Positions 20,938 to 50,000 of a stretch of 64,000 nucleotides of DNA are shown one piece after another. The notes under the pieces were generated by a model that worked only from the letters and a program-made list of their open reading frames with translations, was not told the DNA's origin and made no database searches. The position numbers and the translations under genes are program-made. Source of the DNA: Euglena gracilis (lineage: Eukaryota). The stretch covers positions 27,020,123-27,084,122 of the forward strand of contig CP154954.1 of the NCBI GenBank assembly GCA_039621445.1, read 5' to 3'. Positions within the stretch are counted from its first letter, which is position 1. The number at the start of each line of letters is the position of its first letter.

Positions 20938-21163
20938 ACAGACGTTCCACACAGAGAAACTCTGTGGTTGACTGGTGGTGAGGATCGTACTGAGCCGTGA
21001 AACACGGTGAAAGTACTGTTCCTGGCCCCTAGCCAACCTTTAAGCAAGAATACAGGTCTCAGAAGGCTCTGTTCGGTAATCGCCGATACAACCTTTCTGG
21101 TCCCTGTTTCTCTGCTTATTTGTGTGAATTTTTGGGTTTTTGCCTTTTTACCCATCTCAAAAG

Positions 21164-24831: not shown

Positions 24832-25140
24832 TGTGTACCAGGCGTATGCTTCTGTCCCCTTCCGTTGAGGAAGTTAGGATGGAAGCAGATCCTATTAGGA
24901 TCTCCTAATGGGTGCCCCCTTCTCTCTCCACAGGTGGTATTCTTCTTATACCTTTTCCTTCCTTTCCTTGGACCGGACTTGGATTTCCAATCCGTCCTCC
25001 CTGCATTGCTCCGTGCTTTGCTTCTTGGGAAGTGGGAAAAGGGTTTTTACTGTTACTCTGATTTTTAGTTCCCAAGTAGGTGCGCCAAGGCGAAAGCGAA
25101 GGCTTTTTGGGAATTGGGAATTGGGAATCAGACGTACACT
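24832..25140 (+). repeat. 5' LTR of element C (309 bp, TG...CT)
   Basis: Direct repeat of 41066-41375. Confidence 0.97.
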
Positions 25141-25235
25141 TGGTAGCAGATTAGGTCACGATCCTACACACACAGCCCATACAGAAAGAAACGCTATCAA
25201 GTATTACACTTGGTAGCAGATTGGTTCGATCCTAC
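25141..25235 (+). promoter_or_regulatory. Duplicated primer-binding site of element C
   Basis: TGGTAGCAGATTAGGTCACGATCCTAC at 25141 and TGGTAGCAGATTGGTTCGATCCTAC at 25211, each preceded by TACACT. Confidence 0.75.
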
Positions 25236-25424
25236 GCTGACTGGCAGCGGAGAGCCCCTGCACCGTTATTACACGGTCGCAGCGTCAGCTCCCGGCTTCT
25301 AGTCAACGTCTAAGCAGACGAGCAGGCTCCGGAAGGTTCTGTACGGTATTACCCGTTACAGCCCCTCTGGTGCCAGCACAACTGCTTAGTTTTGTGGGTT
25401 TTTGCTGTTTTTGTCATCAGAAAG

Positions 25425-28400: not shown

Positions 28401-29402
28401 TTCACGCCTAGCCTCATCAAGGATATCCATCGTGAGGAGTTGGCGGGTAATGCAATGACTCTTGACCAACGCTGGAACTACGTTTCCAAGCAACTGAAGC
28501 TATCACAGCTTCTTGGTCAGATTCAATCCGCGTATACCGCACACCCAACCGCAGGATTACCGGCTGGTTCGGTGAACGCATTGCAAAAATCACCGGTTTC
28601 ACCCACTTCACCAACCACGGGATCGAAAACGCGATACCCGCGTTCTTCGGACCAAGCCACGGATAAAGTGTGCTTTTTGTGCAACAAACCGGGACATATG
28701 TCTCGGGAGTGCCCTAATCCTGAAGCGCGAAAGCGTATTCAGAGTCCGCGGGGCTCGACCTCATCACGAGGTTCGGGTTCCTCCGCATTTTCACGTCAAT
28801 CGGGCAATTCACGGTCATCGGGTCCCCGTTCCGGTGGTATTAGCCCCCGGATCCCGTTCCGCGATGAGCGGAAACACGGTACCCCTCGGGGTAGGTCACC
28901 CGGTGCCCCGGCCAAGAAGCGTGATTCTCATCCCGAGATATCGCGATCGCGTTCGCGAAGCGGATCATCTTCTTCGCGATCGTCATCGGGAAAACCCCGA
29001 TACACCGGTCATGGTCGACGGGATATCCGGTCACCACGACGGATTGACGGGAAATCGGGAAACCGAGCCCCCCGTTACCCAGAATCGCGACACAAATCGC
29101 GGTGTTCGCTTTGTGGATCGAGTGATCACCACTCATCCAAATGTCCGCGTTCTCGTTCTCCCCGCCCTGGCCAACGTCATCGCGGTATGAATCGCGGTGA
29201 CAAGGGTCACTCCTCCAACCGCCATAAAGTCGGTTTCAAGATATCTTGTTTGGAGGATGACACCCCGGCTTCGGGCAGGGAGGGGGATGAGACCACGGAT
29301 ACCGATTTCGACGAGGCCCGCATGGCGGTGCGCACGTTGAAATCCGTTTATACCTCTAAAAGGCCCATAGCCGGCTATTCGGCCGGTTCTGACCTGGAGT
29401 AG
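25425..29402 (+). CDS. gag: Gag polyprotein of element C (1325 aa; long coiled-coil N-terminus, capsid-like domain, two CCHC knuckles separated by an RS-rich tract)
   Basis: Uninterrupted ORF with CFLCNKPGHMSREC and CSLCGSSDHHSSKC. Strong similarity to Gag of B. ATG chosen because MQST is the start in all three copies. Confidence 0.93.
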   Translation: MQSTGPNHQFNYALLQASLQDIDQETGDWKLLCENASSSHADEAQLIQLSQLQHLSSLTVVGDEPSTSLASEANAASSALTLPQRGYSPLSAATVQLRTPERPVVIPPSGFSGDGGLETPCFFQPPPALPPASPYRALPPPPDIGCYPALPWQPETRLVVPEFSGTSQPMDDYGKGTGELLTAEDVQDIVARLPGDHPLVRQFNHVQQCVAECATALNKVLQFDEDNQKHVFTKLEHCWNYLQEVGRYCQRNFESAGIDLANFRETFDRICQQLPQNFRQISECMHEAETRNDSKFLHLHGSLQQLSGQMESCSSALLHLQQQLHARDSSSATSSSGGFVSMDHFTTLSATFHESQHRIMQLCDETEKFRQFQSQANENFAPHTYVRQLEERLSRLEQKTCYCDANRVGLSNLSAKVAEIAQRQDSLQLQLQSDIGGINSAIAGLQQSYSALSHRVPDISGIQTAIGELQTRHASVSTKVTEMQSLPAGSGSRITENPDFKAFYDKMLTNNQETLQDFCNSLLRLEESVNRNARSTQSEITRLYERISALLDNPQPGNLPMGTTTVLSDNPAPVAPTTTPTKVTSPLQILSNAVKALMGQLQLLDKSHGKLVQDVTGISERIPHLDDFSRYLKRIRALEDEVDRICGQLQLVEHLEQSVHDLSVGLDNVSNQQRVSHRNSAVCIAEDAPDAPDSRFHNPNLGAHAPPPPVSRVSQSAIPRIVPPLALPTTQNQFSDESPITGTEFSENTAIPPSLHQEIHHSMLVRGMSQTRTPGVGHMLHARHTPTPECPPITGDQQGLRPDFRYQDSPSPEISRFRQESGKDTLGARAYPGPNPRNTTEGQRVFQKDFKGTIAIANKVKPQWDGDPTTWRQFFRDWEYYWALKGPTQDTNPEVIKMEFIDCLPRDEKERARQLVIRYRVSFDDLVEQYASTSSSLVARITLETKWRQCAPPDRKWKSIDLWYAKWLGLAAEVDELSEKQMREQFDAVLMHFTPSLIKDIHREELAGNAMTLDQRWNYVSKQLKLSQLLGQIQSAYTAHPTAGLPAGSVNALQKSPVSPTSPTTGSKTRYPRSSDQATDKVCFLCNKPGHMSRECPNPEARKRIQSPRGSTSSRGSGSSAFSRQSGNSRSSGPRSGGISPRIPFRDERKHGTPRGRSPGAPAKKRDSHPEISRSRSRSGSSSSRSSSGKPRYTGHGRRDIRSPRRIDGKSGNRAPRYPESRHKSRCSLCGSSDHHSSKCPRSRSPRPGQRHRGMNRGDKGHSSNRHKVGFKISCLEDDTPASGREGDETTDTDFDEARMAVRTLKSVYTSKRPIAGYSAGSDLE

Positions 29403-29437
29403 GGGAGCCCGAGGTCCGAGGGCACGGACCTCTGGGC
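29400..29437 (+). promoter_or_regulatory. Putative UAG readthrough signal (stop followed by stem-loop) at the gag-pol junction
   Basis: TAG GGGA GCCCGAGGTCCG AGGGCA CGGACCTC T GGGC. pol continues in the gag frame. Identical in B (41784-41821), with a compensatory base pair in A. Confidence 0.7.
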
Positions 29438-32400
29438 TGATGAACAGATGGAGGTAGGACCTGATCAACCCTGCCCCCCCTGCCCATCTGCCTTCCTGGT
29501 CGGTACCCGGAAAATTTTCGGGTCCCCCACCCCCCACTCCAACTTTCCGCTCGGAATGTTGTGCAAAGTAGGAAAGGGTTCATGGGAAAGCTGGCAAGAA
29601 AACGTATTTTCGCCAGACCCTTCACTTTGCCTACCCCCCATGGAACTTTTGGTCCAAGCGGAAATCAAAATCCAAAATTTTTGTGCAAAAGTCAAAATTC
29701 TCATTGACACTGGTTGTCGCATTGCACTACTTTTTCGGTTCGGGTTGATACCAACCCCCCTCTTGGTGCAAGCCAAGAAGCCGATCAAAATTACGACGGC
29801 TGACAACACCCCCATGTGCGGTGGTGACTTGGGATGCTTTTTGGACATAGTCCTACCCCTCATCCCCAAGCACCACTCACACCCCCCCAACCGCAAAAAT
29901 TTCCGGATACCTGGGGATATGAATCCGGAATCCATGGTTCTGACGTAATTCTGGGATACCCCTTTTTACGTCAGCACCGGCTGGTAGTGGATTGCCACTC
30001 CCACGGTTTGCGCACATCACCACTCTCTTCATTGCCCCCCAAACCTTCATCACCCGTGGCGTCAACCGCGACAGCCACCAATTTTTCCACACCGTTTTCA
30101 AAAACTTTTACCCCGTTACCAACCACACCAACCAACGTTTTCCACACCGGGTGTACCGAGAAAGTTCACCCCCTGCCCACTACCATACCAACTTCCGTTC
30201 CCCATGAGGCAGGGCAAGCGAGTAGCGGTACCCCCCTCGTTCCACTGGGTTACAAGACGAAAGCCCAAAGGCCTGAAGTACGTACGGTGTCGAGTAGTCG
30301 CCCAGCTGCACCAATACCCCGTTTTCCACCAGATGTATCGCTTTCAGATACATCTGTACACCCCCCAGCAGCTACAACAGCGCATCCCAACTTTTACACA
30401 CACCCCCACCAGACCAACATGCGCGACCAGGACCACTACTCCGACACTTCCTTCCAATGTGTGCACTGTAGGAGAATTTCCGCCCAGCCAGATTTCGATT
30501 GTGGATGTTTAGTCCAAACACCAACACTAATCCCGATTTCGCGTAACCATACACTTGGTTGCGGATCGCAATGCGCGACCGTACATCAAGTGCTCCAACA
30601 ACGAGGTATTGCCTTGTTGTTTGGGACCGCGAAATCCGTGTCACACACCTCCCCCACCTCCATCTGGCATGATATGGACTGGGTATGCACCCATCCAACC
30701 CATCAACCCTTGGGAATGCCCCTTGGGAGTGTGGATGACACACCCTTGACCTATGTTTGCGGATCCCTGAATTGCGTTACCGCTCTTCAACCCGCGAACC
30801 AGGTCGACACATACGCGATGCGCGTATGGAACGCATTTAATTTTGGTCAATACCGTATTTTGGAGGAATGGTTCTCCAAAATCGCGGCTTTGGCTGATTC
30901 CTTCGATTTGTCGTTGGAAATTGATGCGTTTTCATCAAAAGCGCATGCGCGCTTGTCGCGATATTGGTCGCGACATACCAACGCATTTCTTAAATTCTGG
31001 GGTGATACGGTGCTGTGGATGCATCCTCCCCCAAAGCTTATCCCGGATGTGGTGGAGAAAATCCTCCGCGATGAAGCGCGAGGAGCTCTCCTCATCCCGG
31101 TCAATCCGAATGCGGATTGGTTTCACCAACTATCCCATGTGTGTTTTCATTGGTGGGATTTACCCGCTGATGTACCACTATTTGAGGATTTTTGTGGTAT
31201 ATTATTACCACCTGTTAAAGAAATCATTTTTCGCATTTGTTTCTTCGACGCATTCGGAATATCCGATGTGCGTGTGCCAAGATACCTTGGTACCAATGGG
31301 GATGCCACACCCTCAACGCAGATTTCTGCGGTCATTGAGAGTGCGGACCAACATCCCAAGTCTGCTGATTATTGTTCGCGAATTGCTCGCGAATTTCATG
31401 GTGTACTGGATAACCCAGTTTACGCCTGCGACATCGACCCCGCGATTCGCGGTCCGTTCGGTGTTTGCAAAATCGAGCTCAAGGATGGCGCTAAACCTAT
31501 GCACCGGAAATTCTTCCGTTGTTCGGGTGAACGCGAACAGGCTCTCAACGAGATGATTGAGAAGCTCATCCAGCGGAAGTGGATTATCCCTTCCAAGAGC
31601 GAGTGGACATCACAAGCTTTTGTGGTGCCCAAACCCGCTGACCAGTCTGGTCAGAAGAAGTGGAGACTGGTGCTGGATTACCGGTACCTGAACTCCCAAA
31701 CGAAGGATGACCCCTTCCCGTTACCGCTGATCGAGGATTTGATCACCAAACAATCGGATAACCGGTTGTGGTCAATCTTTGATCTGGAAGACGGTTTCCA
31801 TCAGATGCATTTGCATCCTGATTCGCAACCGTACACGGCATTCGTGACATCCAAGGGTGTGTACCAATGGACGGTACTCCCCATGGGTGTTAAGAATGGC
31901 CCAGCCATGTTTCAACGCATGATCCAGTGGGTTTTGCGCGATTTACCGTTTGCTCTGGTGTACATCGATGATGTACTGGTGGGAACCCAACCGCCATCCG
32001 CGAAATCGGGCGAGGATATCCTCGACCCGCATTATCGCGATGTGCGCGCGGTATTATCCGCGTTCCAAAAGCATGTGCTTTTTGTGAAGGGTTCCAAAAT
32101 GCACCTGTTTCGCAAAATTATTAAGTTTTGCGGACACATCCTGAGCAACGGGCAGCGTAAAGCCGCACCCAGTAAGATGGAGGCCATTAAGAAATGGACT
32201 CCTGAGGTCATTAAGACCTTAACGCATTTAAAGGGATTTTTGGGATTAGCCCAATACTACGCGATTTACATGAAAGATTTCGCGAAAATCGCGGTACCCC
32301 TAACCCGACAACTCAAAAATCGGACACCCGATAACGCAAAAGTCATTTGGGATGACCAAATGCGCGAGGCCTTGAATAAAATCAAGGACTTGCTCCTCGA

Positions 32401-34528
32401 GAACGTGGTTCTCGATATCGCGGATCCATACAAACCGTATGTCCTGGAGGTCGACAGCAGCGATTACGCTGTTGGCGGGGTTCTTAGCCAGCATAATGCG
32501 GCGAATGAACTCCGACCTGTGGCTTTCTTTAGCAGGAAGCTACAGGGCGACAACGGGAAAGGACAGGTTAAATGGAGCATTCGCGAAAAGGAGACATATG
32601 CCATTGTGCTAATTCTCCAGAAGTTCCGCAGCTGGATAGCCAGCAGCTTGGTCCAGATACTAGTGTTGACGGATCATGAGAGCCTTCAACACTGGTATAC
32701 CGAGGACCTGAACAAGGCCATGTCATCAGTTGGCAGAAGATGCCGATGGCATGAGTTCTTGAGCCAGTTTAACCTGGTGGTAGTTTATACCCCAGGTCAT
32801 ACGCAAAAAGTTGCGGATCCTCTCAGCCGAGCCCCCTGGTATTATCCTGGGAACCCGGATGAGGGTGATGCGACTTTTCATGGCAGCCATGAGGCTGACC
32901 AGTTCGCACGTCGATCCGACGCTGCGGACAACATGCTCGATTCACTACCGGTTTCCCGGGTGTATCGCAGCATCGCCATTTCACCATTGCGTGGAAGGCG
33001 CCGGCGTGGACGCACTGCCGGACCCCGTCGCATTACGCGTACGGAAACTCCTACCCCCCTATTTTTCCGCGAATGGGATTATTCGCGTGACCCTATATAT
33101 AGTACCATTGTGAATAGACTTCGTAATGGTGAATCCATAGAGAATTACTCTCTATCACCATTGCGGCTTATTTTCCGGAATGATTCTGGTTATAAATATT
33201 GTATACCCCAAGACCTGGTTGATGATGTGATTTTGAGCTATCACAACCATGGTCACCCTGGGGCCCCCAAACTTCTTTCACTAGTGGGTCGCAGATATTG
33301 CACAACCCTGAGTGAAAAAGAATTATATTCGCGCTGTTTGCAAATTTCGCAACGGTGCCAAATTTGTCAGGCTGTGAAACCGCGCAGAGGTACCCCCCCT
33401 GGTACGATGGACTTTTTCCCCGTACCACCTGACATTTTTACGTCCCTCTGCATGGATTTTCTCGAACTTGAACCTTGCAAAGGATCAGATGACAAAATTT
33501 ACGATTACGTTTTTGTTGTCGTCTGTCGGCTGAGTGGGTACATAGTAGCCATTCCATGCCGGAAAGCAGGGTTGACAGCCCAAATTTTGGCATCCATATT
33601 CCTGGAGAAATGCATCTGCTTAATGGGTTTACCGAACGAAATCGTGAGTGATCAAGATCACTTGATCTCTTCGCGGTTTTTCACAACTTTGTGCGGTTTA
33701 CTCGGCATTGAGCAGCATTTTTCCATTATATACCGCCCGAAAGGCAATGGTAGAGCCGAGGCAGCCGTGAAATCCGTTGTCAATATGCTTCGCCTTTCAC
33801 TGGCTGACTCGGGTAAGAATTGGTTATCCGTTCTTCATTGGTGTTTATTTTACATCAATACCTTGCCAGGGTTGGTATTACCACACTCACCGTACAAAAT
33901 TGTTTTCGGACGAGACCCTCCGGCCATAGGGGATATCCCCTCGGAGAGACCCGCCCGAAGTAGCGTCAGCTGTGAAACGTGGTTTGCAGAAGTGGAATCA
34001 CTCCGCTCTGCAGTCCAATCACGTATCACAGAAATTCATTCCAACAAACGGAAATCGTTTTTACAAAACTTCAACACACCTGTGTATAGTCCAGGTGACC
34101 GCGTGTGGGTACGGAATAACCGCACCCGCATGCAATCTTCCAAGCTAGATCCTCTTTGGCTCGGCCCATGCGAAATTTTGGAGAGGTTAGGTAGTAGCGG
34201 GCGATATAAAGTTGCCTTGCCCAACGGGATTGAGGACGTCCATATGGACGACTTCAAACCGTACCTAAGCCCCCCAGACGGAAAAGCTATCCCCTGCCTA
34301 TATTTCAAGCCCCGTTCCAGATTACCTGAAACGGACGACTTTGTGGTCGATAAGATAATAGACCACAAGGTCGACAGGGGTGTGCACTACTGGAAAGTTC
34401 GCTGGAAAGGGTATGGGCCAGAGGAGGACACTTGGGAGCCAGCATCCAGTTTTGTTGGATATGTCCAACAGGATTGGAAGCTGTGGAACAAGCGCAATAA
34501 CATAGACATAAACATAAACACTTTCTGA
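29403..34528 (+). CDS. pol: Pol of element C: PR - Cys cluster - Dam-like MTase - RT - RNase H - integrase - chromodomain (one 1-nt frameshift in the C-run at 29882-29888)
   Basis: ILIDTGC and DVILGYPFL (PR), EIDAFSS...WMHPP (MTase-like), [13 protein letters not shown] and YIDD (RT), [12 protein letters not shown]...EKE...TDH (RNase H), HNHGH...CQIC, MDF, SDQD, GRAE (IN), FVVDKIIDH...[17 protein letters not shown] (chromodomain). Confidence 0.95.
30845..31260 (+). other. DNA adenine-methyltransferase-like domain within pol of element C
   Basis: [73 protein letters not shown] resembles the DIRS/phage Dam-type MT pattern D[AL]F[AS]...NAF..W....[WY].[NH]PP..LI....KI......L..P.....W. Confidence 0.8.
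34335..34490 (+). other. Chromodomain at the integrase C-terminus (element C)
   Basis: [40 protein letters not shown], with aromatic-cage positions F, W and Y retained. Confidence 0.9.
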
Positions 34529-34723
34529 AACGATTTCGTTTTGGAGAATGCGTGTGTTTTATGTGAATGTTTCGCGTTTATACCCCCCCCTGCACTTCAT
34601 TATTTCTCTATCTTTCTCGCAGAGTTTTGATTAAGATAGAAGCCTTGCTTTTTCAGTGCTCTCGCACTCAAATCGACTGACAACAAGGTTATCCTTAGTT
34701 GTCGTCGTCGTTCGGGTAGCATC

Positions 34724-37700
34724 ATGCTGCCTGGGCGCGGACCTGGACCAGGTCCACCATGGCCGCAGCCTTCTGGCGCGCCATACCCTCAGTACCCTCA
34801 GTATGCTGAGGCCCCGATTCCGGGTGCCCCACATGCTGAGAGGGTTTCAGCCCCGGTATTCGCCGCGGCTACCAGCAGCCGGTCCGCATATGCGGTACCA
34901 GATCCATCTGCCGTCCAGCAGCCGGCACCTCAGCCACCCGTGCAGCGCAGATCGCGCCTGCCCCCGTATGCGGGAGAGATGATCTTCCGCACTACGGAGA
35001 CGTTGGAGCGGGCGATGCGTATGTGCGCACACCCCCCAACGGAGCCCTTTATGCAAGCCCTTTGGGATGCATACTGTGCTCAGTTGTTGGTGGTAGCCAA
35101 CACCCCTGTGGCTCAGTGGTGTCCCTGCGGTCAAGCCCTGATGACGGGCAGACGGTATTTCTCGTCCGCAGCCGATTCCGGCTTCGAACCCGGCGAGACC
35201 ATGATGGACCTGGGCGTGTATGTGCCGCCCATGCTGCAAACGCAGACGCCGGTGGGATCCCACACCGTGCATATGCGTGAGCACACGCCCCCACCGGTAG
35301 GTGAGGCTGTGCATGTCCCACCTGGGATGACGAGAATTTTTGCTCGCCCGCCCTCGCCGCAGCGAATGCCGCCGCGCGAGCCGCCAGCGGAGCAATTTGT
35401 CTCGCGGTACGCGACGCACGCGGATTACCCGCGCGGCGCACGCGTGCTCCCAGCCGGACAGTCGGACGTGCCCTCTGAGGCATACGTCCAACACATGTTC
35501 ATGCACTGGATGCCACAAGCATCATCGGTCGCCCCTGCCCCTGGCGTTGAGCCACGGAGGCAGGAGGAGCCCATAGTGGTGGAGGATGAACCTCCCCACC
35601 GTGAGGCAGCCCGACCGCCCAGTGCAGCCCCTGTCCAGACTGGGGATGTCCCCCGTCGGCAGGAGGCTCCCTACTATCATATGGCACCTCCGGGAACCGA
35701 GCAGGATGAGCTTGCTCGGCACTTCCTGCAGGAGCCAGTATTCGCGTCTGAAGAGCACCGGACGAGGTATTACGCCTCTCTGGCTGCCCTTCAGGGTCGT
35801 GGATACACCCCCTACCATCCGTACCAGCCGCAGCTGCGGGTGGCGACCCCGGTATTACCCGGTGAGCCCCCGGCAGGAGCGGCAGGATTACCTGCCACCC
35901 TGAAGCGCGATAGGGTTACGGAGAACCTTACCCCACAGCCCAGGCGACCCAGCCCACGGGACGCGGAAGGCGGTGCGGCAATGCAGGTGGAAGCCAGCCA
36001 GGATACCCTGGCCGGGCAACCACCGGCAGTGGCACAGGCAGCGATGAGCCGTCCTGTTGCCGCAATGCCTCCGCCGATCCCTCCGGTATGGAAGGAGCCG
36101 CGACCTCCTACGCCGAAACCAAGCCCACGCCAGGCTCCTGGCCAGCGCCCAGCCACGCCGTCACCGCGACGTGCAGCGGAACGGCAAGGTCCCTCCCCAG
36201 AGATGGAATGGGAAGGTACCGAACCGACTCCTGCCGCACCGAGCGCCCGACCCTCTGGTATTCGCCAGACAGGGAAGGACAAAGGTAAGGCTGAGGGCAA
36301 AGGCAAGGGAGAAGGCAAAGGCGTGGCCGGCAAAGGTAAGGGTGAGGGCAAGGGTAAGGGTACAGCCCGTGAGGAGGAGGAAGAACCAGCAGAAGTCCTC
36401 TCGGACTTTGAGCAAATGCTCAGGTTCAAGGAGGAGCTGGAGGACGAAGGCTGGCGAATGCAGCATGATTACCATGTTGCAGGAAACCGCCCCGTCACCC
36501 CTCCGGAGGCAGTCATCGAGGTGGTATTACACCACACCGAAAACAGAGTCAGACAATTCCATTACGGAATTGACCTGTACGCCTTCGAAGGTGAAGGTGG
36601 CAGACCCTTGCTGGATGCCCAGCCGGGTTTCTGGGAACTCTGGTTTTGGCTGGGATACCCCTGCCAGAACTGGGGTCTCTTCAGCGACTCCACTGGCCGC
36701 AGTTACCTGCACCAGTTAGGATTTCGGGACCAGCATGTGTTGGCCCGAAGGCTGAAGGCAATCTTCGACTGTATTCACACAGTCGGGCCCCTCGGTGTGC
36801 AGTGGAAATACTACCCACTGAACCCCGACATCGAACGCCTGATCGAGGTGTTGTGGTGCAACAACCTCCAGGTGTGGCTGGTGAGCCATTACGGCTCCAC
36901 CTTCCGCGTTAAGCGCGTTTCCCTGGCTTACCCACAGAGGTATGACCTCTGTTGTAAGTATTGCCGGCAGGAGTTTCCTGTCGACTTCTGGGGATTCGGC
37001 GTACGCGGAAGTCCTCCACCGCCTCGGGATAACCCGGGCCTGGAGATGGGACGCCGCATGCTTATGCATGTGTGCCGCGACGCCCCGGATGTCCAGGGCA
37101 AAAGTCGCCGCGTCCATAAGCAGCGTATTTTTATGCTGCAACAGTTCTGGTGGCGAGCCTGGACCACCTACGTCATGGAGGTGTATATACATCTCCGTGA
37201 CACCCAGGACGATAGGCCTGGTATGGAAAGCTTGCCACCAGACTACGGCGACCCCGTTGAGGGACCTCGTCGTCGTCGGGTTATCGCCGACCTGCGCCCC
37301 AACTGGCACCTCGCCGGGATAGACCTGGAGGAACATTTCAGGCGACAGTTTGGCGGTACCCTCGACAGGGAGGTATTCCTCCAGCTGATGAATCACCCGA
37401 AGGCCATCCTCGACCTGGGTATGCCGATTCTGGCATGCGTGCAGGAGTTCGAGGACGGGTTTTTCGAGGTCTGGGAGGACACGCGTTACCGCGGCTTCCT
37501 GGGCCCGAACAGGCCTGCAAACGCTTGGGTGCAGCCATCATGGCCGCCACCCTGGCCCAACAGCGCCAGTAGCAGTACGCTGGCCTTTTACAGGCTGGCG
37601 GATGCCCAGGGATGCCGATGGCACCCCGACGATCCTCGTTCGCCCGAGGATCTGCGCGCCTTCATCGCCCCAGAGGATGAACCTCTGGCGCGAAGGAGAC

Positions 37701-40246
37701 GTGAGGCGTCAGTCGCTTCCACCACTGCGATTCCGCGGCGGGAGGAACGCGACCGCAGCCCCTCCGTCACCATACTGGAGGCAGCGCCGCCGTCTCCGAC
37801 AGGAACGGCTGTATCATTCGTCTCTGCCCCGCGAGCGGCAGGGGAACGATCAGTTTCCCCGGCCCCCGCGGCGGCAGCTCCCGTCTGTCCACCGGTAGGT
37901 GGAGACGAGGAACTCCCTCAGGAGGAAGGCGAGAACGTGGAGGATATCCTCTACGCTGCTCTGCATCCTCTGGCACAGCCTAGGCCAGACGAAGCACCCG
38001 CAGGGGATATACCTGTGGCTGCTACGCCTGTTCCAACGGCTGAGCCTCCAGCCGAGGTGACTGGTATGGTCGTCGAGGATATCCTCGAAGAACCTGCCAG
38101 TCCCACAGCACGCACCTCGTTAGGAGGCCGTGTGCTCGGCGCCGTGGTCACTGGCATTACTGCCGTGGCTGCTGCACTAACGCTACGAGGTGGAGGTGTA
38201 GCATCAAGCTCCGCCGCTGAGGTCGTGGAGACACCAGATGTCGGTGTCCCCACACCCCCATCTCCGGCAACAGCGCAACCACCTTCAGGGGATGAACCCC
38301 AGCCGACAGAGCCATCTGTCGCACCGGCTACAGCGGAGGATCAACCTCCTGTAGCACCTGCGCCAGCGGTTGTGGAGGATCAACCTCCTAGACCGGATGT
38401 CGAAATGGAAGTGGAGGAGATACCCCCACGATCACGGACACCGCGCAGGGACCCTGCCGCCCCGAGGACAATGGCAGAGTTTCTGGGAGCGCCAGCGCCT
38501 GTGGAAGCACCGATTCCGGTGACGACCACAGTGCCACGCCTCGTCGGACAGGATGAACCTGTTCGGCGACGGCCTGCTGAACAACCCCGGGAACGAATGC
38601 CAACCCCTCGGAGCGTCATGCGCGACCCAGCGGTCAGTATGCCCGCTTCGCCCAGACGGCAAACGTCTACTCCGGCACCATCGGCTCCTGATACCAGGAG
38701 TAAGCCGCAGGCGTCGTCTCCTGATTCCGGGAGTGCGAAGCCGAAAGGAGGCAAATCGGGTGCTGCACCCTGTAAGCCCCCTTCCAAAGGCGGTGATGGG
38801 AAACCACCACCGAAAGGTGGCGCTGGAGGTCAGACTGGCGGACAGCCGAAAGGCCCTACGACAATGCACGACTATTCGGCCGTTGCATCGTCCGGGTACG
38901 GCCAGAGCAAACCGAAAGGTAAGGCTCGTGGTCGACAGGCCCAGTCTTCCGCCGGATCGACGGATGAGGAGCAGGATGAACCTGCTTCACCTCCTGTGTC
39001 TGCGGATGCCCAGCTCTGGACCCAGGATATCCTGACCAGACTAGGCACCGTGGAAGAGAGGACGAAGAAACTGGCTGCTATTAGGCACCAGAAAGGGTCA
39101 CTGAATCGATGGATTCAGCCCCTCTTCGTCCGCGGAGAACCTTTCCACTATGTCCCGGAACATACCTGGACATTCTGGAACAGGCGCTCACCCAGAGTAC
39201 TGGCACAGTACTTTGGTGAGGACTGCGTGTTGGATTTCCAGCACGGCACGTCCCTTGCCTGGACGTGCACCGTGTGCCACCATGTGCGGCACAACCAACC
39301 GCTTGTGCATGTGTGCAAGCGGCAGGTGCAATCCTCGTGGTTCCATCACAGGGCATATGTGCCGAACTGTGTGGCGCTCGTATGTGGCGAGTGCCTGAAT
39401 GCCTGGAAGCACAGCTTGAACTACTCCTACAGTGAGAATGCTCACGACAGGGATATCCCTGCCTTGTGCATCAACTGTATAGGAGGCAAGTTCGTGCAGA
39501 CTGCTGATGGAGCAGTCACCACCATTGTCCCCCAGCACTGGGAGACACTGGAGAAGTGGAAGAAGGAGTACAAGCAGGTGGAAGGCCGCCTGAAGCACTC
39601 CGACTTCCGAAAGGTAGAAAGCTACCGCCACACGGGAATGGCCCGTGAGTTCCAGATCGACGCTGGGGCAATGCGCCTCGCCGTCGAGGAACACGCCAAG
39701 GTAAGAATGCCTTACCTCTGGACTGATGGCGACTGGGAGACACAGGTTTACCCCCTGTTCTCCAAGCGTCAGCATGGCGGATACGCCTTGCCACTGTGGC
39801 CTCCTGAAGAACACGATTTGGTGGACTTCAGAGGTTGGTTGGCGGCTGTATTACGGCCCCATACCGCAAGAGCTCGGACAGCGAGGTGGATGTATGACAT
39901 CAACTTCAAGCAGACCCCGGGGATGCCCCCGCAGGTGCCTGCGAATCACCCCCGGATGAATTACATCATCTGGCCGGTGATGCTGCCCAGAATTTTCTGG
40001 GAGCAACTCCAACGGTATCTTCAGCATCATGCTGAGCGTACCAGGGAGAAGCTGCCGGATAATTGGATCAAGGACTGGGAGACCCCTTCCTTTGATGTCA
40101 ACGATCCGGAGCTCAACACCATTCGGAGTGAATCAGCTCCGCCGCGTTCCCCACGCCAACTGGAGTTGGTTGAGGACCCATTAGGGGACCCCCAACACGA
40201 CTACTGGCGTGAGGTCCGCGAACGTCCAGCCAATAAAGGCAGGTGA
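34724..40246 (+). CDS. ORF3 of element C: 1840-aa protein of unknown function (Pro-rich linkers, KG repeat, CxxC/HxC domain, C-terminal RING-like Cys domain)
   Basis: Uninterrupted 5.5-kb ORF between pol and the 3' LTR. Three globular blocks are conserved in the homolog of element B (47048-52480), and the first block is also seen in A (~56100-56420) and E (61183-61722, minus). Confidence 0.9.
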   Translation: MLPGRGPGPGPPWPQPSGAPYPQYPQYAEAPIPGAPHAERVSAPVFAAATSSRSAYAVPDPSAVQQPAPQPPVQRRSRLPPYAGEMIFRTTETLERAMRMCAHPPTEPFMQALWDAYCAQLLVVANTPVAQWCPCGQALMTGRRYFSSAADSGFEPGETMMDLGVYVPPMLQTQTPVGSHTVHMREHTPPPVGEAVHVPPGMTRIFARPPSPQRMPPREPPAEQFVSRYATHADYPRGARVLPAGQSDVPSEAYVQHMFMHWMPQASSVAPAPGVEPRRQEEPIVVEDEPPHREAARPPSAAPVQTGDVPRRQEAPYYHMAPPGTEQDELARHFLQEPVFASEEHRTRYYASLAALQGRGYTPYHPYQPQLRVATPVLPGEPPAGAAGLPATLKRDRVTENLTPQPRRPSPRDAEGGAAMQVEASQDTLAGQPPAVAQAAMSRPVAAMPPPIPPVWKEPRPPTPKPSPRQAPGQRPATPSPRRAAERQGPSPEMEWEGTEPTPAAPSARPSGIRQTGKDKGKAEGKGKGEGKGVAGKGKGEGKGKGTAREEEEEPAEVLSDFEQMLRFKEELEDEGWRMQHDYHVAGNRPVTPPEAVIEVVLHHTENRVRQFHYGIDLYAFEGEGGRPLLDAQPGFWELWFWLGYPCQNWGLFSDSTGRSYLHQLGFRDQHVLARRLKAIFDCIHTVGPLGVQWKYYPLNPDIERLIEVLWCNNLQVWLVSHYGSTFRVKRVSLAYPQRYDLCCKYCRQEFPVDFWGFGVRGSPPPPRDNPGLEMGRRMLMHVCRDAPDVQGKSRRVHKQRIFMLQQFWWRAWTTYVMEVYIHLRDTQDDRPGMESLPPDYGDPVEGPRRRRVIADLRPNWHLAGIDLEEHFRRQFGGTLDREVFLQLMNHPKAILDLGMPILACVQEFEDGFFEVWEDTRYRGFLGPNRPANAWVQPSWPPPWPNSASSSTLAFYRLADAQGCRWHPDDPRSPEDLRAFIAPEDEPLARRRREASVASTTAIPRREERDRSPSVTILEAAPPSPTGTAVSFVSAPRAAGERSVSPAPAAAAPVCPPVGGDEELPQEEGENVEDILYAALHPLAQPRPDEAPAGDIPVAATPVPTAEPPAEVTGMVVEDILEEPASPTARTSLGGRVLGAVVTGITAVAAALTLRGGGVASSSAAEVVETPDVGVPTPPSPATAQPPSGDEPQPTEPSVAPATAEDQPPVAPAPAVVEDQPPRPDVEMEVEEIPPRSRTPRRDPAAPRTMAEFLGAPAPVEAPIPVTTTVPRLVGQDEPVRRRPAEQPRERMPTPRSVMRDPAVSMPASPRRQTSTPAPSAPDTRSKPQASSPDSGSAKPKGGKSGAAPCKPPSKGGDGKPPPKGGAGGQTGGQPKGPTTMHDYSAVASSGYGQSKPKGKARGRQAQSSAGSTDEEQDEPASPPVSADAQLWTQDILTRLGTVEERTKKLAAIRHQKGSLNRWIQPLFVRGEPFHYVPEHTWTFWNRRSPRVLAQYFGEDCVLDFQHGTSLAWTCTVCHHVRHNQPLVHVCKRQVQSSWFHHRAYVPNCVALVCGECLNAWKHSLNYSYSENAHDRDIPALCINCIGGKFVQTADGAVTTIVPQHWETLEKWKKEYKQVEGRLKHSDFRKVESYRHTGMAREFQIDAGAMRLAVEEHAKVRMPYLWTDGDWETQVYPLFSKRQHGGYALPLWPPEEHDLVDFRGWLAAVLRPHTARARTARWMYDINFKQTPGMPPQVPANHPRMNYIIWPVMLPRIFWEQLQRYLQHHAERTREKLPDNWIKDWETPSFDVNDPELNTIRSESAPPRSPRQLELVEDPLGDPQHDYWREVRERPANKGR

Positions 40247-40286
40247 GGTGTCTGTCAGCGCCAATGCGGCGTCTTTCAGCACCCTC

Positions 40287-40362
40287 GTCAGGTATTCGCC
40301 TGACACCCTGTTTGGGTATTCGCCCGAACAGCCCCTTCGAAGACCTTTGCGGTATTCGCCGC
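40287..40362 (+). repeat. Three tandem hairpins with identical TATTCG loop and different stems
   Basis: GTCAGG-TATTCG-CCTGAC, CTGTTTGGG-TATTCG-CCCGAACAG, GCGG-TATTCG-CCGC. Confidence 0.8.
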
Positions 40363-40515
40363 TAGTAAGTTCCCACCGGGATGCTGCCATGTGCAGGATT
40401 CCGTGCGCATGCATGCACACCCCTCTCCCCTCTCCCCTCTCGCGGGCGTGCGACACGCAGCGCACAGGGCCGACGGCCTCTTTTCCTTTCCCTTTCTTTT
40501 CTTTTCGGCCGTTTG

Positions 40516-40870
40516 AGGCCTTAAGGCTGCCAGACAGCACAACTTTTCTGGCCTAAGCCAACCCCCCACTCCTCTCTACTTTCCCCCCGGGGCAAATGCT
40601 GTCGCCGGCAGTTGGTTTTGTAGAGTAGGATTTCCTTTTGCGTGGTCAGGTTTGACTGGCCATGCGCCCTGCCCAGGTTTGACTGGTCAGAGGCCCCCTC
40701 CTTCCACACCCTCCCCATGGGTTTTCCTGGAATGACCATGGACCCAACCCCAAGTGCCTTTGGCACACCCAAACTGGGTGGATGGGTTTGCTTGGCAAGG
40801 AAACCTGCCAGCCCCATTTTCCCCAATGGGCTATAATATACTATACCCCATAAGCCACCGCAAAATAGGT
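40516..40870 (+). other. Conserved, probably structured non-coding block in the 3' region of element C
   Basis: Clearly alignable to 52850-53210 of element B although the flanking non-coding DNA is not. Shared hairpins GTGCC-TTT-GGCAC and ACCCA-AAS-TGGGT. Confidence 0.65.
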
Positions 40871-41055
40871 GAAACCATTTTGCGCGTTTTGGGCTTTTGG
40901 GTCCCCTCCTTTCCGCCCCCCCCTTTGAGTGGACCCCTGTGCGACGGAAAGGGCCCCTGTGGATGCGCCAGGGTGCACCTCCCACAGACCAGGTCTGTGT
41001 CCGAAATCCCTGTGGCCAGAATGCCTGGTCCAAAGGGGAAATCGGGCATAGCCCT

Positions 41056-41065
41056 GGGAGGGGGA
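41056..41065 (+). promoter_or_regulatory. Polypurine tract of element C
   Basis: GGGAGGGGGA immediately before the 3' LTR; identical in B. Confidence 0.9.
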
Positions 41066-41375
41066 TGTGTACCAGGCGTATGCTTCTGTCCCCTTCCGTT
41101 GAGGAAGTTAGGATGGAAGCAGATCCTATTAGGATCTCCTAATGGGTGCCCCCCTTCTCTCTCCACAGGTGGTATTCTTCTTATACCTTTTCCTTCCTTT
41201 CCTTGGACCGGACTTGGATTTCCAGTCCGTCCTCCCTGCATTGCTCCGTGCTTTGCTTCTTGGGAAGTGGGAAAAGGGTTTTTACTGTTACTCTGATTTT
41301 TAGTTCCCAAGTAGGTGCGCCAAGGCGAAAGCGAAGGCTTTTTGGGAATTGGGAATTGGGAATCAGACGTACACT
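41066..41375 (+). repeat. 3' LTR of element C (310 bp)
   Basis: Direct repeat of 24832-25140, followed by TSD AAACC. Confidence 0.97.
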
Positions 41376-41380
41376 AAACC

Positions 41381-41786: not shown

Positions 41787-44700
41787 GGGAGCCCGAGGTC
41801 CGAGGGCACGGACCTCTGGGCTGATGAACAGATGGAGGTAAGACCTGATCAACCTTACCCCCCCTGCCCATCCGCCTTCACGGTCAGTACCCGGAATTAT
41901 TTCGGGTCCCCTACCCCCCACTCCACATTTCCGCTCGGAATGCTGAGCAAAGTAGGAAAGGGTTCATGGGAGAGCTGGCATGCAAACGTATTTCCGCCAG
42001 ACCCTTCACTTTGCGTACCACCAATGGAATTACTCGTCCAAGCGGAAATCCGCATTCAAAATTTCTCCACCAAAGTCAAAATTCTCATTGACACTGGTTG
42101 TCGCATTGCACTGCTCTTTCGGTTGGGGTTGATACCGACCCCGCTCTTGGTAAGCGCCAAGAAACCGATCAAAAATACAACCGCGGATAACACCCCCATG
42201 TGTGGTGGTGATTTGGGATGTGTGCTCGAGATACTCTTGCCCATCATTCCGAAGCATCACTCACAACCCCCACAATTACAACATTTCACCAATATTTGGG
42301 GTTACGAGTCCGGAATTCACGGGTCTGACGTAATTTTGGGATACCCATTTTTACGCCAGTACCGATTGGTTGTGGATTGCCACTCCCACGGTTTGCGCAC
42401 AGCACTCACCACTTCATTGACACCCAAACCACCATCACCGTTGTCATCCACTATGATGACCACCGCTTTGCCCACACCGTTACCCACAATGGCAACACCG
42501 TTACCCACCACACCAACAACCGTTTTCCACACCCGGGGTACGGAGAAAGCCTCCCCCCTGCCCAATGACACACCAACATGCGTTCCACATGAGGCAGGGC
42601 AAGCGAGTAGCGGTACCCCCGCCGTTCCACTGGGTTACAAGACGAAAGCCCAAAGGCCTGCAGTGATCACGGTGTCGAGTAGTCGCCCAGCCACACCACC
42701 ACTCCGTTTCCCACCAGTTGTGCCGAATCCAGGCACACCTGTACAAGACTCACCGGCTAATGCCATCGACACCCACTTACACGCACACCTGTCACACCAT
42801 CACACTTCCTTCCAATGTGTGCACTGCAGGAGAATTTCCACCCAATCGGATTTCGATTGTGGATGTTTAGTTGAAAATCCGACACTAATCGCAATTCCGA
42901 AAACGGAATCCACCCCCCATGATACACTTGGTTGTAGCCCGCAATGCGCGGAGATACACCGAGTACTCCAACAACGCGGATTAGCCTCGTTGTTCGGAAA
43001 CGCGAAAAGCGCGATTCCTAATTACAATCGCGATCACACTTGTTACGGATTTGATGCGGAATGGGGAAACCCCCAACCTGACCAAACTCCCTTGGGATTA
43101 ACCCTTGTGGTAGTGGAAGACAGCCCGCATGTTTGTGGATCCATTCATTGTGTTTCTACCCTTCAACCCGAAGATCGGGTGCATGAATACGCGAAACGCG
43201 TATGGAATGCTTTCAATTTTGGTCAATATCGCATTTTGGAACGATGGTTTTCCAAAATCGCGACATTGGCTGATTCTTTTGATTTGGCATTGGAAATCGA
43301 TGCCTTCTCATCCAATGCTCATGCCCGTTTGCCACGTCATTGGTCACAACACTCCAACGCATTTGATAAATTTTGGGGTGATACGGTGTTATGGATGCAC
43401 CCTCCCCCACAACTTATCGAACGTGCGGTTGAGAAAATTCTGCGGGATGAAGCCCGTGGAGTTATTCTCATACCCATCATTCCGGAAGCGGAATGGTTCA
43501 CCCAACTATCGTACGTATGTTTTCATTGGTGGGATTTACCCACTAATGTACCGATTTTTGAGGATTTTTGTGGTAAAATATTACCACCCTTGCAAGAAAT
43601 CATTTTTCGCGTATGTTTCTTCGATGCATTCGGAATGTCCGAATTCGCGGTGCCGAGGAAGCTCGGTAGCCCCAGGGATACCCTGGCGGTTTCCGCAGTC
43701 ATCGAGAGTGCAGGTCAGCATCCTAATTCAGCCGAATTCTGTTCGCGGATTACCCGCGAATTCCACGGTGTGCTGGAAAATCCAGTATACGCGTGCGACA
43801 TCGACCCCGCGATACGCGGTCCGTTCGGTGTTTGTAAGATCGAGCTTAAGGATGGAGCCAAGCCAATGCACCGGAAATTTTTTCGTTGTTCGGGAGAACG
43901 CGAACAAGCTCTCAATGAAATGATTGAGAAGCTTATTCAGCGCAAGTGGATAGTACCCTCGAAAAGCGAGTGGACATCCCAGGCATTTGTTGTTCCTAAA
44001 CCCCCAGACCCCTCAGGTCAGAAGAAATGGAGGCTGGTGCTGGATTACCGGTACCTGAACTCCCAAACAAGGGATGATCCCTTCCCGCTCCCCCTGATCG
44101 AGGATTTGATCACCAAACAATCGGAAAACCGGTTGTGGTCAATTTTCGATCTGGAGGACGGTTTTCACCAAATGCACTTACACCCTGACTCCCAACCATA
44201 CACGGCATTCGTGACATCCAAGGGAGTGTACCAATGGACGGTACTCCCCATGGGTGTTAAGAATGGTCCAGCCATGTTTCAGCGCATGATACAATGGGTT
44301 CTACGCGATTTACCGTTTGCCATTGTGTACATTGATGATGTACTGGTGGGAACACCACCACCAACCGCAAAATCGAGCGAGGATATCCTCGTCACACACT
44401 TCCACCATGTTTGCGCGGTATTAACCGCTTTTCAAAAACATGTGCTTTTCGCGAAAGGCGCGAAAATGCATTTGTTTCGGATACTTATAAAATTTTGTGG
44501 TCACATCCTCAGCAATGGACAGCAAAAAGCCGCTCAGAGTAAACTCGAAGCCATTAAGAAATGGACCCCTGAGGTAATCAAAACGATTACTCACCTCAAA
44601 GGATTTTTGGGATTAGCCCAATACTACGCGATTTATATGAAGGACTTCGCGAAAAGCGCGGTGCCCCTCACCAAACAGCTCAAAAACCGGGCTGTTGACA

Positions 44701-47047: not shown

Positions 47048-50000
47048 ATGCTGCCCGGTGGAAGGGAGCCAGGCGGAGGACCGCCTTACCACCCCACCAC
47101 TCACCCTCAACCTGACCAGTATGCGTACCGATACGGTACGCAGCCACCTGCACGGACTGCGGCTCAGGGAAACCCTGAAGCCAGCAGCAGTAGCAGGATG
47201 ACCCAGATGCCCGCGGAAGCGCGGCCATCTCAGCCATCAGGCTCTCGTCGCCTCCCACCGTATGCGGGTGTGATGATCCACCGCACGGCGGAGACGATGA
47301 ACCGGGTTATGCGTATGAGCGCAAACCCGGCACCAGACCAACTCACACAGGCATTGTGGGATGACCACTGCCGTAAAGTTTTGACCATCGCGAATACCCC
47401 TCCAGCCCTGTGGTGTATGTGCGCCCAGGCGACGATGACCGGTCTGGTGTATTACACCGACCCGGACGCGTCGGGATTCGCGGCAGACATTACCATGCGT
47501 GACCTGGGCGTGGAAGTCCCGCCACAGGTCGCACGGCAGGTACCACCAGTTGGCACTTACACTGCACATTTTCGTGCTCACTCCCCCGGATTACCCGAGG
47601 AAGAGACAGTGGAAGCACCTGTCCGGAGTGAACACCCACGCGTGAAAGAAAGCATTTTTAGATCCCCTGAGCGCGTGCCCCGGCGGGATTATCCTGCAGA
47701 GGAGCATGTGTCTCAGTACGCCGTCTCTGGGGATTATCCCCAGGAGGCGCCAAGGCCACAGGATCAGTACGTATATCCACCTCAACCCCACCCAACTATA
47801 CCTGACCCTATCCCACGACGTCCTGCGGAGGGAAACCCTCCCCCGACGTCTGACTCTGCCCGAAGCGCTCGTCCGCGGGAAGCCGCGGCAGCGCCTCGTG
47901 CGGCACCAGTTCCCCCGGCACGGGATGAACCCGTTAACCCGTGGACTGGTCGGCCGTTCGAGACTGAGGAGGAGCGTCAACAGTATGAATATGCTGTGAC
48001 GATCCAACGACAAATCGCACGTCGCCCCCCTGTTTCCGCTGGCCAGGGATACCCTGCCCGGGCGGAAATGACACGGGAAGAGCGCCAGCAGTATGATGCT
48101 GCTGTGTCGGCTCTCACAGGAGTCCCAGCTCCATCACGATCAAGTCAACCAGCGCGACAGCAGGACGTTGCTGTGGCGGAAGCGCCTCTAGCACGGCCCA
48201 CAAGTTCTGCCGCCGGCAAGCGTGACCGCGGCCCGGAAAATCTGACGACGCAGCCACAGCGCCGCTCGCCGAGGTCGGAAAATCCGCCCGCGGCGATGCA
48301 CGTCGACGCTGAGGAGGAAGCTCCACCAGCGCCAGACGTGACGGCAGAACGGGCACGTCGGGAAACCCGACCATCCCCAGTCGCACCGGTTTACTCGAAT
48401 CGTGGTGATGCTGAGCAGGAATTTGCTCGGACGCCAAGCACGGAATCCGTGACTTACCCAGTGTTTACGCCAGAAGACCCAGAATACTGGGAATACTTTG
48501 ACCCATACCGGGCGACATTCGAATGGCTGTCAAACACAAAGGGCAAGGGTAAAGGAAAGGGCAAGGTAAGGGGAAAGGAAAAGGCCAGGAGAAAGGTGGG
48601 AAAGCCCCACCTGGCAAAGGCGGAAAAGCCGCCTGGTCAGCTCCAGGCAAAGGCGGAAAATCTGCCGGACCCCCAGCAGGTAAGGGCGGGAAAGCCGCCG
48701 AACCTTCGAAAACGAAGGATTATGACGTTGCCTCAGTGTTCAAGTACCTGGAGGAGATCTGGCCGAAAATCGACGAAGATCTCCAAAAGTTCACAAGGGC
48801 AGGCAACGTGATCCACCGACCACCGGATGCGGTGCTCGAAGTGGTGCAGAATCGTATGAACGATCACTGCAAACGTTTTTTCTACAGTGCCGAACTTCAT
48901 GCGTTCGAGGGATACCCTCATTCGAATGAAGTTGTCCTGGACCAGATGCCTGGTTTCTGGGAATTGTGGTTCTGGTTGGGATACCCCTGCCATAATTTCG
49001 GCATTTTTACCGACCGAAACGGTCTGACGTATACCGATTTCCTGAATACCTGTGAAGACGGCGAAACGTTCGTTGCACAGTTGAAGGAAATCTTCAACCA
49101 CATGTTTTTTAGCCAGCGCACTGGGAATCCAGTGGAAGTATTACCCCCTGCCGGAGAAACTCCAGGCACAGGCTGCGGTAATGTTCACGAACAACCTCCA
49201 AGTCTTCTTGGACAGCATGTATGGCATGCTGTTCAAGGTACTGGACGTGGACCTCGCGTACCCCCAGCGGTACAAACTGGAATGCCAGTTTTGCAAGGAA
49301 GTCCACATCGTTGACTTCTGGGGTTTCGGAGAACGCGGAAAACCGCCTCCGTCTGCCGAGAATGCCGGCAGCCAGCCGACCAGGAGATTCCTCCTGCATC
49401 AGTGCCGGAATCCCCAGATTGGAACGCAAGACCGAAAGGTGCTGAAACAGCACCGGCAGAAAATATTTCTGCTGCAGCAGTACTGGCACAGGGCGTGGAT
49501 TACCTACGTCCTGGAGGTCTACATATATTTCCTGGAATATATGACCGCCGATGTGGAAATCCACAGAAAGTGGTTGCCTCGGGGATATATGGAGGTGAAC
49601 GCCAGACCCAATGACCCAGACCAGCGCAGGATGAACCTGCGACCAGACTGGGAAGAGGCCGAAATCGGTCTCCAGGAACACCTGGATACCCAATTCGGGA
49701 ATATCCTGATATGGGAGGATTTTCAGATGTTTTTCGCGGCGCACGAAGGGGAAGTCCCTCGTTACGCGTTGCCACTGCCAGCATTCCTGGAAGAAACAGG
49801 AGAGTTTGGCGTGACTGACCATTGTCGACGGCAGTGGGAAGACCTTTGCTTGATCGACGATGATCAACCACAACCTCCACCCGAAAGCTGGGTGAGAGCG
49901 ACGTGGCCACCCCCATACCCCAACTCTGACAGGAGTGAAAGTATTAGCTTTTTCCGCCTGTCAAACGCACAAGGGTGCTACAGGAGCGGGAAAGACCCGC

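Follow-up and report, generated by a model that had tools for sequence, protein, structure and literature searches.

The genome of Euglena gracilis contains a long terminal repeat (LTR) retrotransposon, here called element C, whose third open reading frame (ORF3) holds a compact module of eight cysteines, and the locus raises the question of what this module is and what it does for the element. The initial annotation suggested a RING-like domain, possibly a transposon-encoded ubiquitin or SUMO ligase, or a PHD-like reader. The sequence analysed is a window of 64,000 nucleotides (contig CP154954.1 of assembly GCA_039621445.1, positions 27,020,123 to 27,084,122 of the forward strand), and all positions given below count from its first letter. 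The carrier is a recently active giant Ty3/gypsy chromovirus with ORF3 as its accessory protein. On balance, and with moderate confidence, the module is best explained as the zinc-binding domain of a previously undescribed and very rare protein family, situated within the conserved C-terminal domain of ORF3.

The cysteine module and its conservation

Translation of positions 39266-39478 on the forward strand reproduces exactly the pattern that had been reported there, CTVC-x12-C-x17-C-x4-CGEC-LNAW-x20-CINC, for which the full ligand spacing is C-x2-C-x12-C-x17-C-x4-C-x2-C-x24-C-x2-C. In ORF3 numbering, the eight cysteines (ligands 1 to 8 below) are C1515, C1518, C1531, C1549, C1554, C1557, C1582 and C1585. 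Two invariant histidines also lie within the module: H1519 (39278-39280), directly after the second cysteine, and H1529 (39308-39310), two residues ahead of the third. A second copy of the module is found on the same strand at 51540-51761, in the ORF3 of an older element, element B, and its translation and alignment bear out the claim that all eight cysteines and the tryptophan are present. Both copies are in frame within long open reading frames (34724-40246 in element C, and a 350-amino-acid piece at 51339-52391 in element B), and a tblastn comparison of the whole of ORF3 with the window finds just these two. ORF3 contains 24 cysteines in 1840 amino acids (aa), eight of which are packed into 71 aa; because only 1 of 2000 residue shuffles of ORF3 reached eight cysteines in any window of 71 aa, the clustering is beyond chance.

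Relatives of the C-terminal domain of ORF3 were sought among 1.84 billion representative proteins by a HMMER scan of the full set, which returned only 16 proteins at E<=0.001, 11 of them at E<=1e-10. The best of these, P0003, is a product of 230 aa that matches the query with 99% identity across 161 residues. Its source name is eukprot:EG_transcript_25142, with the prefix of the Euglena gracilis transcriptome; the name thus points to this species as the most likely host, in agreement with the Dam-carrying LTR elements described from it. The remaining relatives are unnamed fragments of 62-431 aa, whose identity to the query is 26-70% where they align. A separate homologue search recovered P0003 only, or P0003 and P0016 only when a profile was used, and scans of metagenome contigs and of viral contigs recovered no relative of the domain.

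Six sequences span the whole module, with pairwise identities of 24-44% over 75 ungapped columns. Fifteen of these columns are invariant among the six (D1504, C1515, T1516, C1518, H1519, P1526, H1529, C1531, C1549, A1551, C1554, C1557, C1582, N1584 and C1585), and ten of the 15 are the eight cysteines together with H1519 and H1529. Because two thirds of the invariant columns, that is 10 of 15, are Cys or His at such low identity, the conservation of the module exceeds chance; the eight cysteines and two histidines are under strong constraint, as C-T-x-C-H and H-x-C. Two relatives depart from the pattern. P0014 has lost two ligands, with Ser at C1549 and Arg at C1557, and P0005, which has Ser, Arg, Trp and Trp at ligand positions as well as a deletion, looks like a decayed copy. 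The Cys and His residues of the module very probably bind zinc.

The sequence C-T-x-C-H also has the form of a c-type haem attachment site (CXXCH). It is invariant in all eight intact sequences, and Cytochrome_C7 is matched at E 0.054 in one of 17 family members, both of which would suit haem attachment. That match is single and far below threshold, however, the CXXCH belongs to a ten-ligand Cys/His cluster, and ORF3 carries no signal for targeting to a compartment with the haem lyase or maturation system that attachment requires. Haem attachment by the module is thus scarcely credible.

The tryptophan four residues after ligand 6, which had been put forward as a conserved hallmark of RING ligases, does not hold up as such across the family: Trp is present in seven of the ten rows that cover this position, and the others have Leu, Phe or Ile. 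The position is a conserved hydrophobic one and not a conserved Trp. The alignment columns at the first cysteine plus two (C1+2), at the sixth plus four (C6+4) and at the seventh plus one (C7+1) read VVVTLVMS, WWWLLFIWW and IVVMIIVVV, respectively; that is, a hydrophobic residue is found at C6+4 and C7+1 in all covering rows and at C1+2 in most. In known structures of RING domains with ubiquitin-conjugating enzymes (E2), the E2 is contacted by hydrophobic residues at C1+2, at C7+1 and in the helix that comes after ligand 6. The hydrophobic positions of the module are compatible with an E2 surface, but they could equally be core residues.

Predicted fold of the module

AlphaFold models were made of the 391-aa C-terminal domain from 17 aligned sequences (mean predicted local distance difference test, pLDDT, 63; 76-90 over the module) and of the module alone, 132 aa, from 11 sequences (mean pLDDT 68; 73-86 in the core). 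In the model of the module, C1-x2-C2 lies between two short strands, H-x-C3 at the end of a strand and C4 at the start of one; C5 and C6 are placed at the N-terminus of a ten-residue helix (63-72), in which the W/L/F/I position also lies. C7-x2-C8 comes after a long loop, and the model closes with a long helix. A zinc knuckle paired with a helix N-terminus is the treble-clef arrangement, by which RING, ZZ and PHD fingers build their first zinc site, and the predicted positions of the C1/C2 knuckle and of C5/C6 at the helix start are consistent with it.

When the module model was compared with 48,161 PDB representatives by VIA-align, 66 chains were found at Z of at least 2 and none at Z of at least 5, the best Z being 3.6. 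Among the 50 of these 66 matches that are listed, 17 are RING or RBR ligase modules by title (five entries for parkin, and Slx1, ARIH2, HHARI, HOIP, HOIL-1, Doa10, NSE1, IRF2BP2, UbcM4-interacting protein 4, CTLH, GID and Ubr1), a further six are ZZ domains and one is a PHD protein. Matches to Nbr1, Mind bomb, KCMF1, Ada2, dystrophin and RSC, as well as to p300, Rad5, Nse1, SEA, Ubp8 and USP5, fall on ZZ, RING or ZnF-UBP domains of these proteins. The other listed matches are ribosomal zinc proteins, spliceosome parts, KDM6B, RIM, the zinc-binding domain (ZBD) of ClpX, and LMO2. The best superpositions over the whole module are with the Slx1 RING (Z 3.4; root-mean-square deviation, rmsd, 3.0 Å; 62 of 70 residues; model residues 20-104) and with the Nbr1 chain (Z 3.3; rmsd 2.5 Å; 48 aligned residues). 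From the independent 391-aa model, only two chains were obtained at Z of at least 2, namely parkin and the ZZ domain of ZSWIM2, and both fall on the module.

Like RING domains, the module has four pairs of Cys/His ligand candidates, of which three are C-x2-C. In both, the third pair opens a helix that bears a hydrophobic residue four positions further along, and another hydrophobic residue stands after the first cysteine of the last pair; the nearest structural matches in this group are the RING1 domains of parkin, ARIH2 and HHARI and the C4HC3 RING of Slx1. ZZ fingers (ZSWIM2, Nbr1, p300/CBP, Mind bomb and p62), which form a small interleaved two-zinc treble-clef fold, give the superpositions of lowest rmsd, 2.5-3.3 Å over 45-58 residues, covering model residues of about 15-103 at Z 2.2-3.3. 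PHD fingers share with the module the C-x4-C-x2-C centre, which has the spacing of PHD ligands 4, 5 and 6, and PHF7 is matched at Z 2.5. In BFVD, the top rows are the baculovirus proteins PE38, IE2 and CG30 (E 0.05-0.2, probability 0.54-0.80), which are RING-plus-helix proteins with E3 ubiquitin ligase activity; like ORF3, they are encoded by a genetic parasite and have a long helix behind a zinc finger, but the match is not significant, the rmsd is 6-17 Å and there is no sequence similarity.

Sub-threshold Pfam matches point the same way. The module of copy B matches zf-C3HC4_4 (E 0.057; 14.0 bits, with the cut-off at 30), B-box (E 0.068), zf-RING_5 (E 0.19; 12.2 bits against 27.9) and zf-RING_2 (E 4.5; 8.1 bits against 27.3), and all of these matches fall on C1549-x4-C-x2-C and the helix. 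The fold evidence, as far as it can be read from models, is weak and of one direction throughout, and no single line of it is sufficient alone. It slightly favours two zinc ions held in an interleaved cross-brace, like those of RING and ZZ fingers. In such a cross-brace, the C1515/C1518 knuckle on its beta-hairpin would pair with C1554/C1557 at the start of the helix, and C1582/C1585 would pair with ligands from H1529-x-C1531 and the C1549 region.

Ligand spacing, possible sequential zinc sites and the putative ligase

Several results weigh against this reading. The RING consensus is C-x2-C-x(9-39)-C-x(1-3)-H/C-x(2-3)-C-x2-C-x(4-48)-C-x2-C, and the hallmark spacing that had been claimed for the module is not found in it: ligands 3 and 4 are 17 residues apart and ligands 4 and 5 are 4 apart, where the consensus has 1-3 and 2-3, and the fourth ligand is Cys. 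With H1529-x-C1531 as the second pair instead, the distance to the third pair is 22 residues, again against 2-3 in the consensus. In PHD fingers, ligand 5 is His, ligand 3 is separated from ligand 4 by 2-4 residues, and a Trp stands two residues before ligand 7; the module has 17 residues in that gap, lacks this Trp, and has Cys1554 as ligand 5 in all covering rows except the degenerate P0005, where it is Trp. In ZZ fingers, pairs 1 to 3 are C-x2-C and pair 4 is His-His, but pair 4 of the module is C-x2-C, its second pair is H-x-C or involves a distant Cys, and its loops are far longer. The spacing thus lies outside the RING, PHD and ZZ consensus alike.

Profile and fold searches add to these points. 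When the 17 family members were compared with Pfam at E<=10, the only RING, PHD or ZZ family matched was zf_RING-like, in one member at E 1.8, and the module of copy C alone gave no RING-clan match at the same threshold; the PHD and ZZ profiles were matched neither by the 17 members nor by the module alone. Searches of PDB chains by phmmer and by profile gave nothing significant, the best being the ribosomal protein bL32m at E 0.26. Foldseek found nothing in the PDB at E<=0.001 with either model, and when its own 428 candidates were realigned, 38 reached Z of at least 2, of which 29 were chains of the ribosomal small subunit and the best, at Z 2.8, was a ZZ domain. No fold match is significant, with Z of at most 3.6 on a scale on which, according to the note of the tool, Z below 8 may mean only a common arrangement. 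The language-model (atlas) neighbours of the module are RING-clan and PHD clusters with scores of 0.79-0.85, and such scores are leads only when below 0.9, shuffled proteins reaching 0.8 a third of the time. Finally, the conserved ligand candidates number ten rather than eight, two invariant histidines being extra to the RING pattern, so that more than one pairing is conceivable.

The middle domain of ORF3 contains a further motif of this type, a stand-alone C-x2-C...H-x-C at 36953-37075 (aa 744-784) composed of C744, C747, H782 and C784. It is kept in copy B, and the nearest other Cys is 121 residues away. The motif resembles the first half of the module, and it could represent either one C2HC zinc site or what is left of an internal duplication.

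Because such a C2HC motif can stand alone in the middle domain, C1515, C1518, H1529 and C1531 could likewise constitute a site of their own, so that the zinc sites of the module would be sequential and not cross-braced. Two sequential sites of the ribbon or knuckle type would then be formed by C1515/C1518/H1529/C1531 (C2HC) and by C1554/C1557/C1582/C1585 (C4), with C1549 and H1519 spare or in the second shell, and the module would stabilize the C-terminal domain or bind the RNA or complementary DNA (cDNA) of the element, with no link to ubiquitin. Such an arrangement would account for the invariance of both histidines, which an eight-cysteine cross-brace does not need, and it agrees with weak Pfam matches to zinc ribbons (Zn_ribbon_10 in 2 of the 17 members, DZR and A2L_zn_ribbon), with the realigned Foldseek candidates, which are mostly ribosomal zinc proteins, together with LIM and ClpX ZBD chains, at the same Z as ZZ domains, and with the fact that the module always lies inside a domain of about 300 aa that has a stronger motif of its own. 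The matches that extend over the whole module (residues 20-104) are, however, interleaved RING and ZZ fingers in both models, with rmsd of 2.5-3.0 Å; C1554/C1557 are at the N-terminus of a helix, a position that in treble clefs pairs with the preceding knuckle; and the neighbours in BFVD and in the atlas are of the RING type. Sequential sites are therefore a possible but rather unlikely alternative to the cross-brace.

Judged by its sequence, the module is not a RING, and it belongs to no defined RING, PHD or ZZ family. What stands of the RING-like fold that was originally proposed is that a zinc-binding fold resembling the RING superfamily leads among the weak structural, Pfam and atlas leads; the part that fails is the support expected from a RING or PHD profile or from a significant fold match.

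If the cross-brace is correct, the zinc-held fold would expose a hydrophobic patch made up of C1+2 (V/T/L/M/S), C6+4 (W/L/F/I) and C7+1 (I/V/M), by which ORF3 could dock on host machinery through a host protein. The leading specific partner would be an E2, in which case the module would act as a RING-type E3. A putative E3 ligase is the most specific and most interesting reading of the module, and a doubtful one; a ZZ- or PHD-like reader of peptides or chromatin, a non-catalytic RING of the Slx1 or p300 type, or a pure scaffold is about as likely. A role as chromatin reader would be in keeping with the chromodomain of the element. In its full form, the ligase proposal would make ORF3 a putative ubiquitin or SUMO E3 with a new RING variant of ten Cys and His, which modifies or degrades chromatin or silencing factors of the host, and this is rather improbable. 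Such a variant could hold a third zinc or have an unusually long loop between ligands 3 and 4, and it would be used by a family of euglenid chromoviruses with a chromodomain and a Dam-like methyltransferase.

The carrier element and the remainder of ORF3

Element C occupies 24832-41375 (16.5 kb) and contains a gag-like ORF, pol and ORF3 in this order. Its 5' LTR (24832-25140, forward strand, 309 base pairs, bp) is preceded by AAACC at 24827-24831 and followed by a primer-binding-like site that begins with TGG, and its 3' LTR (41066-41375, forward strand, 310 bp) is followed by AAACC at 41376-41380, so that the target-site duplication is 5 bp, AAACC. The two LTRs differ by one indel and one substitution. 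The gag-like ORF (25392-29402, forward strand, 1336 aa) has one CCHC knuckle, and pol (29834-34528, forward strand, 1564 aa) comprises reverse transcriptase, RNase H, integrase and chromodomain as well as a sub-threshold Dam-like stretch. Pfam identifies RVT_1 (E 1e-26), RT_RNaseH_2 (E 2e-24), Chromo (E 1.2e-9) and zf-CCHC (E 8.3e-7), and also Integrase_H2C2; rve is matched at E 1.5e-7 with 32.1 bits, slightly below its cut-off of 32.6 bits, and lies above the cut-off in copy B. With its LTRs and target-site duplication, its CCHC-bearing gag and its reverse transcriptase, RNase H, integrase and chromodomain in pol, element C is a Ty3/gypsy chromovirus, and the statement that the module lies within a transposon ORF3 is confirmed by these LTRs, the target duplication and the gag and pol neighbours.

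In the pol of element C, the Pfam family Dam (N6-adenine methyltransferase) is matched at 30884-31129 (aa 351-432) with E 2.2e-4 and 21.4 bits, and in that of element B at 43266-43505 (aa 479-558) with E 5.1e-4 and 20.2 bits, both below the cut-off of 28.1 bits. In both copies, the stretch lies between the N-terminal region and the reverse transcriptase. Chromodomain-bearing LTR elements that carry Dam have been described in Euglena gracilis as DAM-LTR/EpiLTR, and element C resembles them as a chromodomain Ty3/gypsy element with a Dam-like stretch in pol, as far as the searchable text describes them (bioRxiv 10.64898/2026.05.21.726589). The terms ORF3, zinc, RING, ubiquitin and accessory do not occur in that searchable text, supplements apart, and full-text searches of the literature gave no account of ORF3, its zinc module or a RING-like domain in Euglena retrotransposons.

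Element B is the older of the two, and element C has inserted into its gag. A pair of 300-nucleotide repeats near 20482 and 53388, 99% identical to each other, brackets element B and is read as its LTRs. A third copy has its pol split by element B; this pol occupies 17052-20335 and resumes near 54064, and a fourth pol copy lies at about 57132-59834; related chromoviruses are thus nested three deep over 17052-59834 of the window. Two gag-like ORFs in the stack, at 21140-24868 (1242 aa) and 25392-29402 (1336 aa), are unusually long, and each has one CCHC knuckle near its C-terminus and a weak, coiled-coil-like match to NPV_P10 in Pfam. Upstream of the stack, at 2082-12019, lie direct repeats that recur about every 3.2 kb, with 91-94% identity from one copy to the next.

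ORF3 of element C (34724-40246, forward strand) is an intact, uninterrupted frame of 1840 aa, and that of element B (47048-52474, forward strand) is frameshifted into pieces in frames 2, 1, 2, 3 and 2. ORF3 has three conserved blocks, at aa 78-239, 531-1156 and 1459-1832, between which lie low-complexity linkers that its composition profile shows to be rich in Pro, Ala, Ser, Gly and Lys, and BLASTP identity between copies C and B is 49% over aa 78-239, 36% over aa 531-1156 and 47% over aa 1459-1755. The C-terminal conserved domain that houses the module (aa 1459-1832; 39098-40219, forward strand) is delimited by BLASTP, tblastn and the 16 relatives. Pfam assigns no family to the whole of ORF3 at E<=0.01, and comparison of ORF3 with gag and pol by BLASTP, which would reveal a duplicate of either, gave a best E of only 0.83 and the idea was rejected. 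Fragments resembling the N-terminal block of ORF3 are found by tblastn at 55914-56425 (forward strand) and 61492-61686 (reverse strand) with 34-36% identity, and they are probably the ORF3 starts of further, truncated copies.

Outside the cysteines, the most conserved stretch of the family is PGMPPQV-x-ANHPRMNY-x-IWP (aa 1732-1751; 39917-39976, forward strand), which is marked by invariant alignment columns: its P, G, Q, N, P, I and P are invariant in eight sequences. The stretch has no match in Pfam, PDB or fold searches. The remainder of the C-terminal domain, for which no known fold was matched, may hold the real activity of ORF3.

The only markedly hydrophobic stretch of ORF3, at 38120-38191 (aa 1133-1156), has a Kyte-Doolittle mean of 1.8 over 19 aa. 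This stretch is partly kept in copy B, is flanked on both sides by disordered linkers, and could be a membrane or amphipathic segment. ORF3 follows pol, where env is located in elements that have one, and this position, together with the moderate hydrophobicity of aa 1133-1156 and its partial retention in copy B, would fit an env analogue in which the cysteines of the module form disulfides in an extracytoplasmic, envelope-like glycoprotein domain and bind no metal. The N-terminus of ORF3 is, however, rich in Pro and Gly and has no hydrophobic, signal-like start; C-x2-C pairs with two invariant histidines are the signature of a metal site; the module would be cytoplasmic if aa 1133-1156 were a membrane anchor; and no viral glycoprotein family was matched in Pfam or BFVD. 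A disulfide-bonded envelope domain is accordingly very improbable.

RNA is made from this family of copies at a low level. Besides P0003, which derives from a transcript, one RNA-seq run, of which about 6% was sampled, yielded 153 reads at an identity of at least 97%, which fall in all 30 bins of the element including ORF3, and a second run yielded 33 reads from the element. Read depth over the element is 0-2x, with mates in both orientations; at this coverage of only about 0-2x, no joint, start cluster or loose end of a subgenomic or spliced mRNA was seen at the start of ORF3, and the reads are silent on how ORF3 is translated.

LTR retrotransposons rarely have a third gene of known function. 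The most constrained part of ORF3 is a zinc module without a family assignment, and the module is most suitably classed among the treble-clef or cross-brace zinc fingers, as a variant not described before, in a new, very rare family of transposon proteins. If it is merely a structural zinc site, it would be an ordinary new domain in a transposon protein, with no function assigned. If docking on the ubiquitin or chromatin machinery of the host is true, the module would represent a new sequence class for the RING/ZZ superfamily and would show a transposon manipulating its host in the heavily methylated genome of a protist. If the module is an E3, these elements would gain a ubiquitin arm for their 'epigenetic toolkit'.

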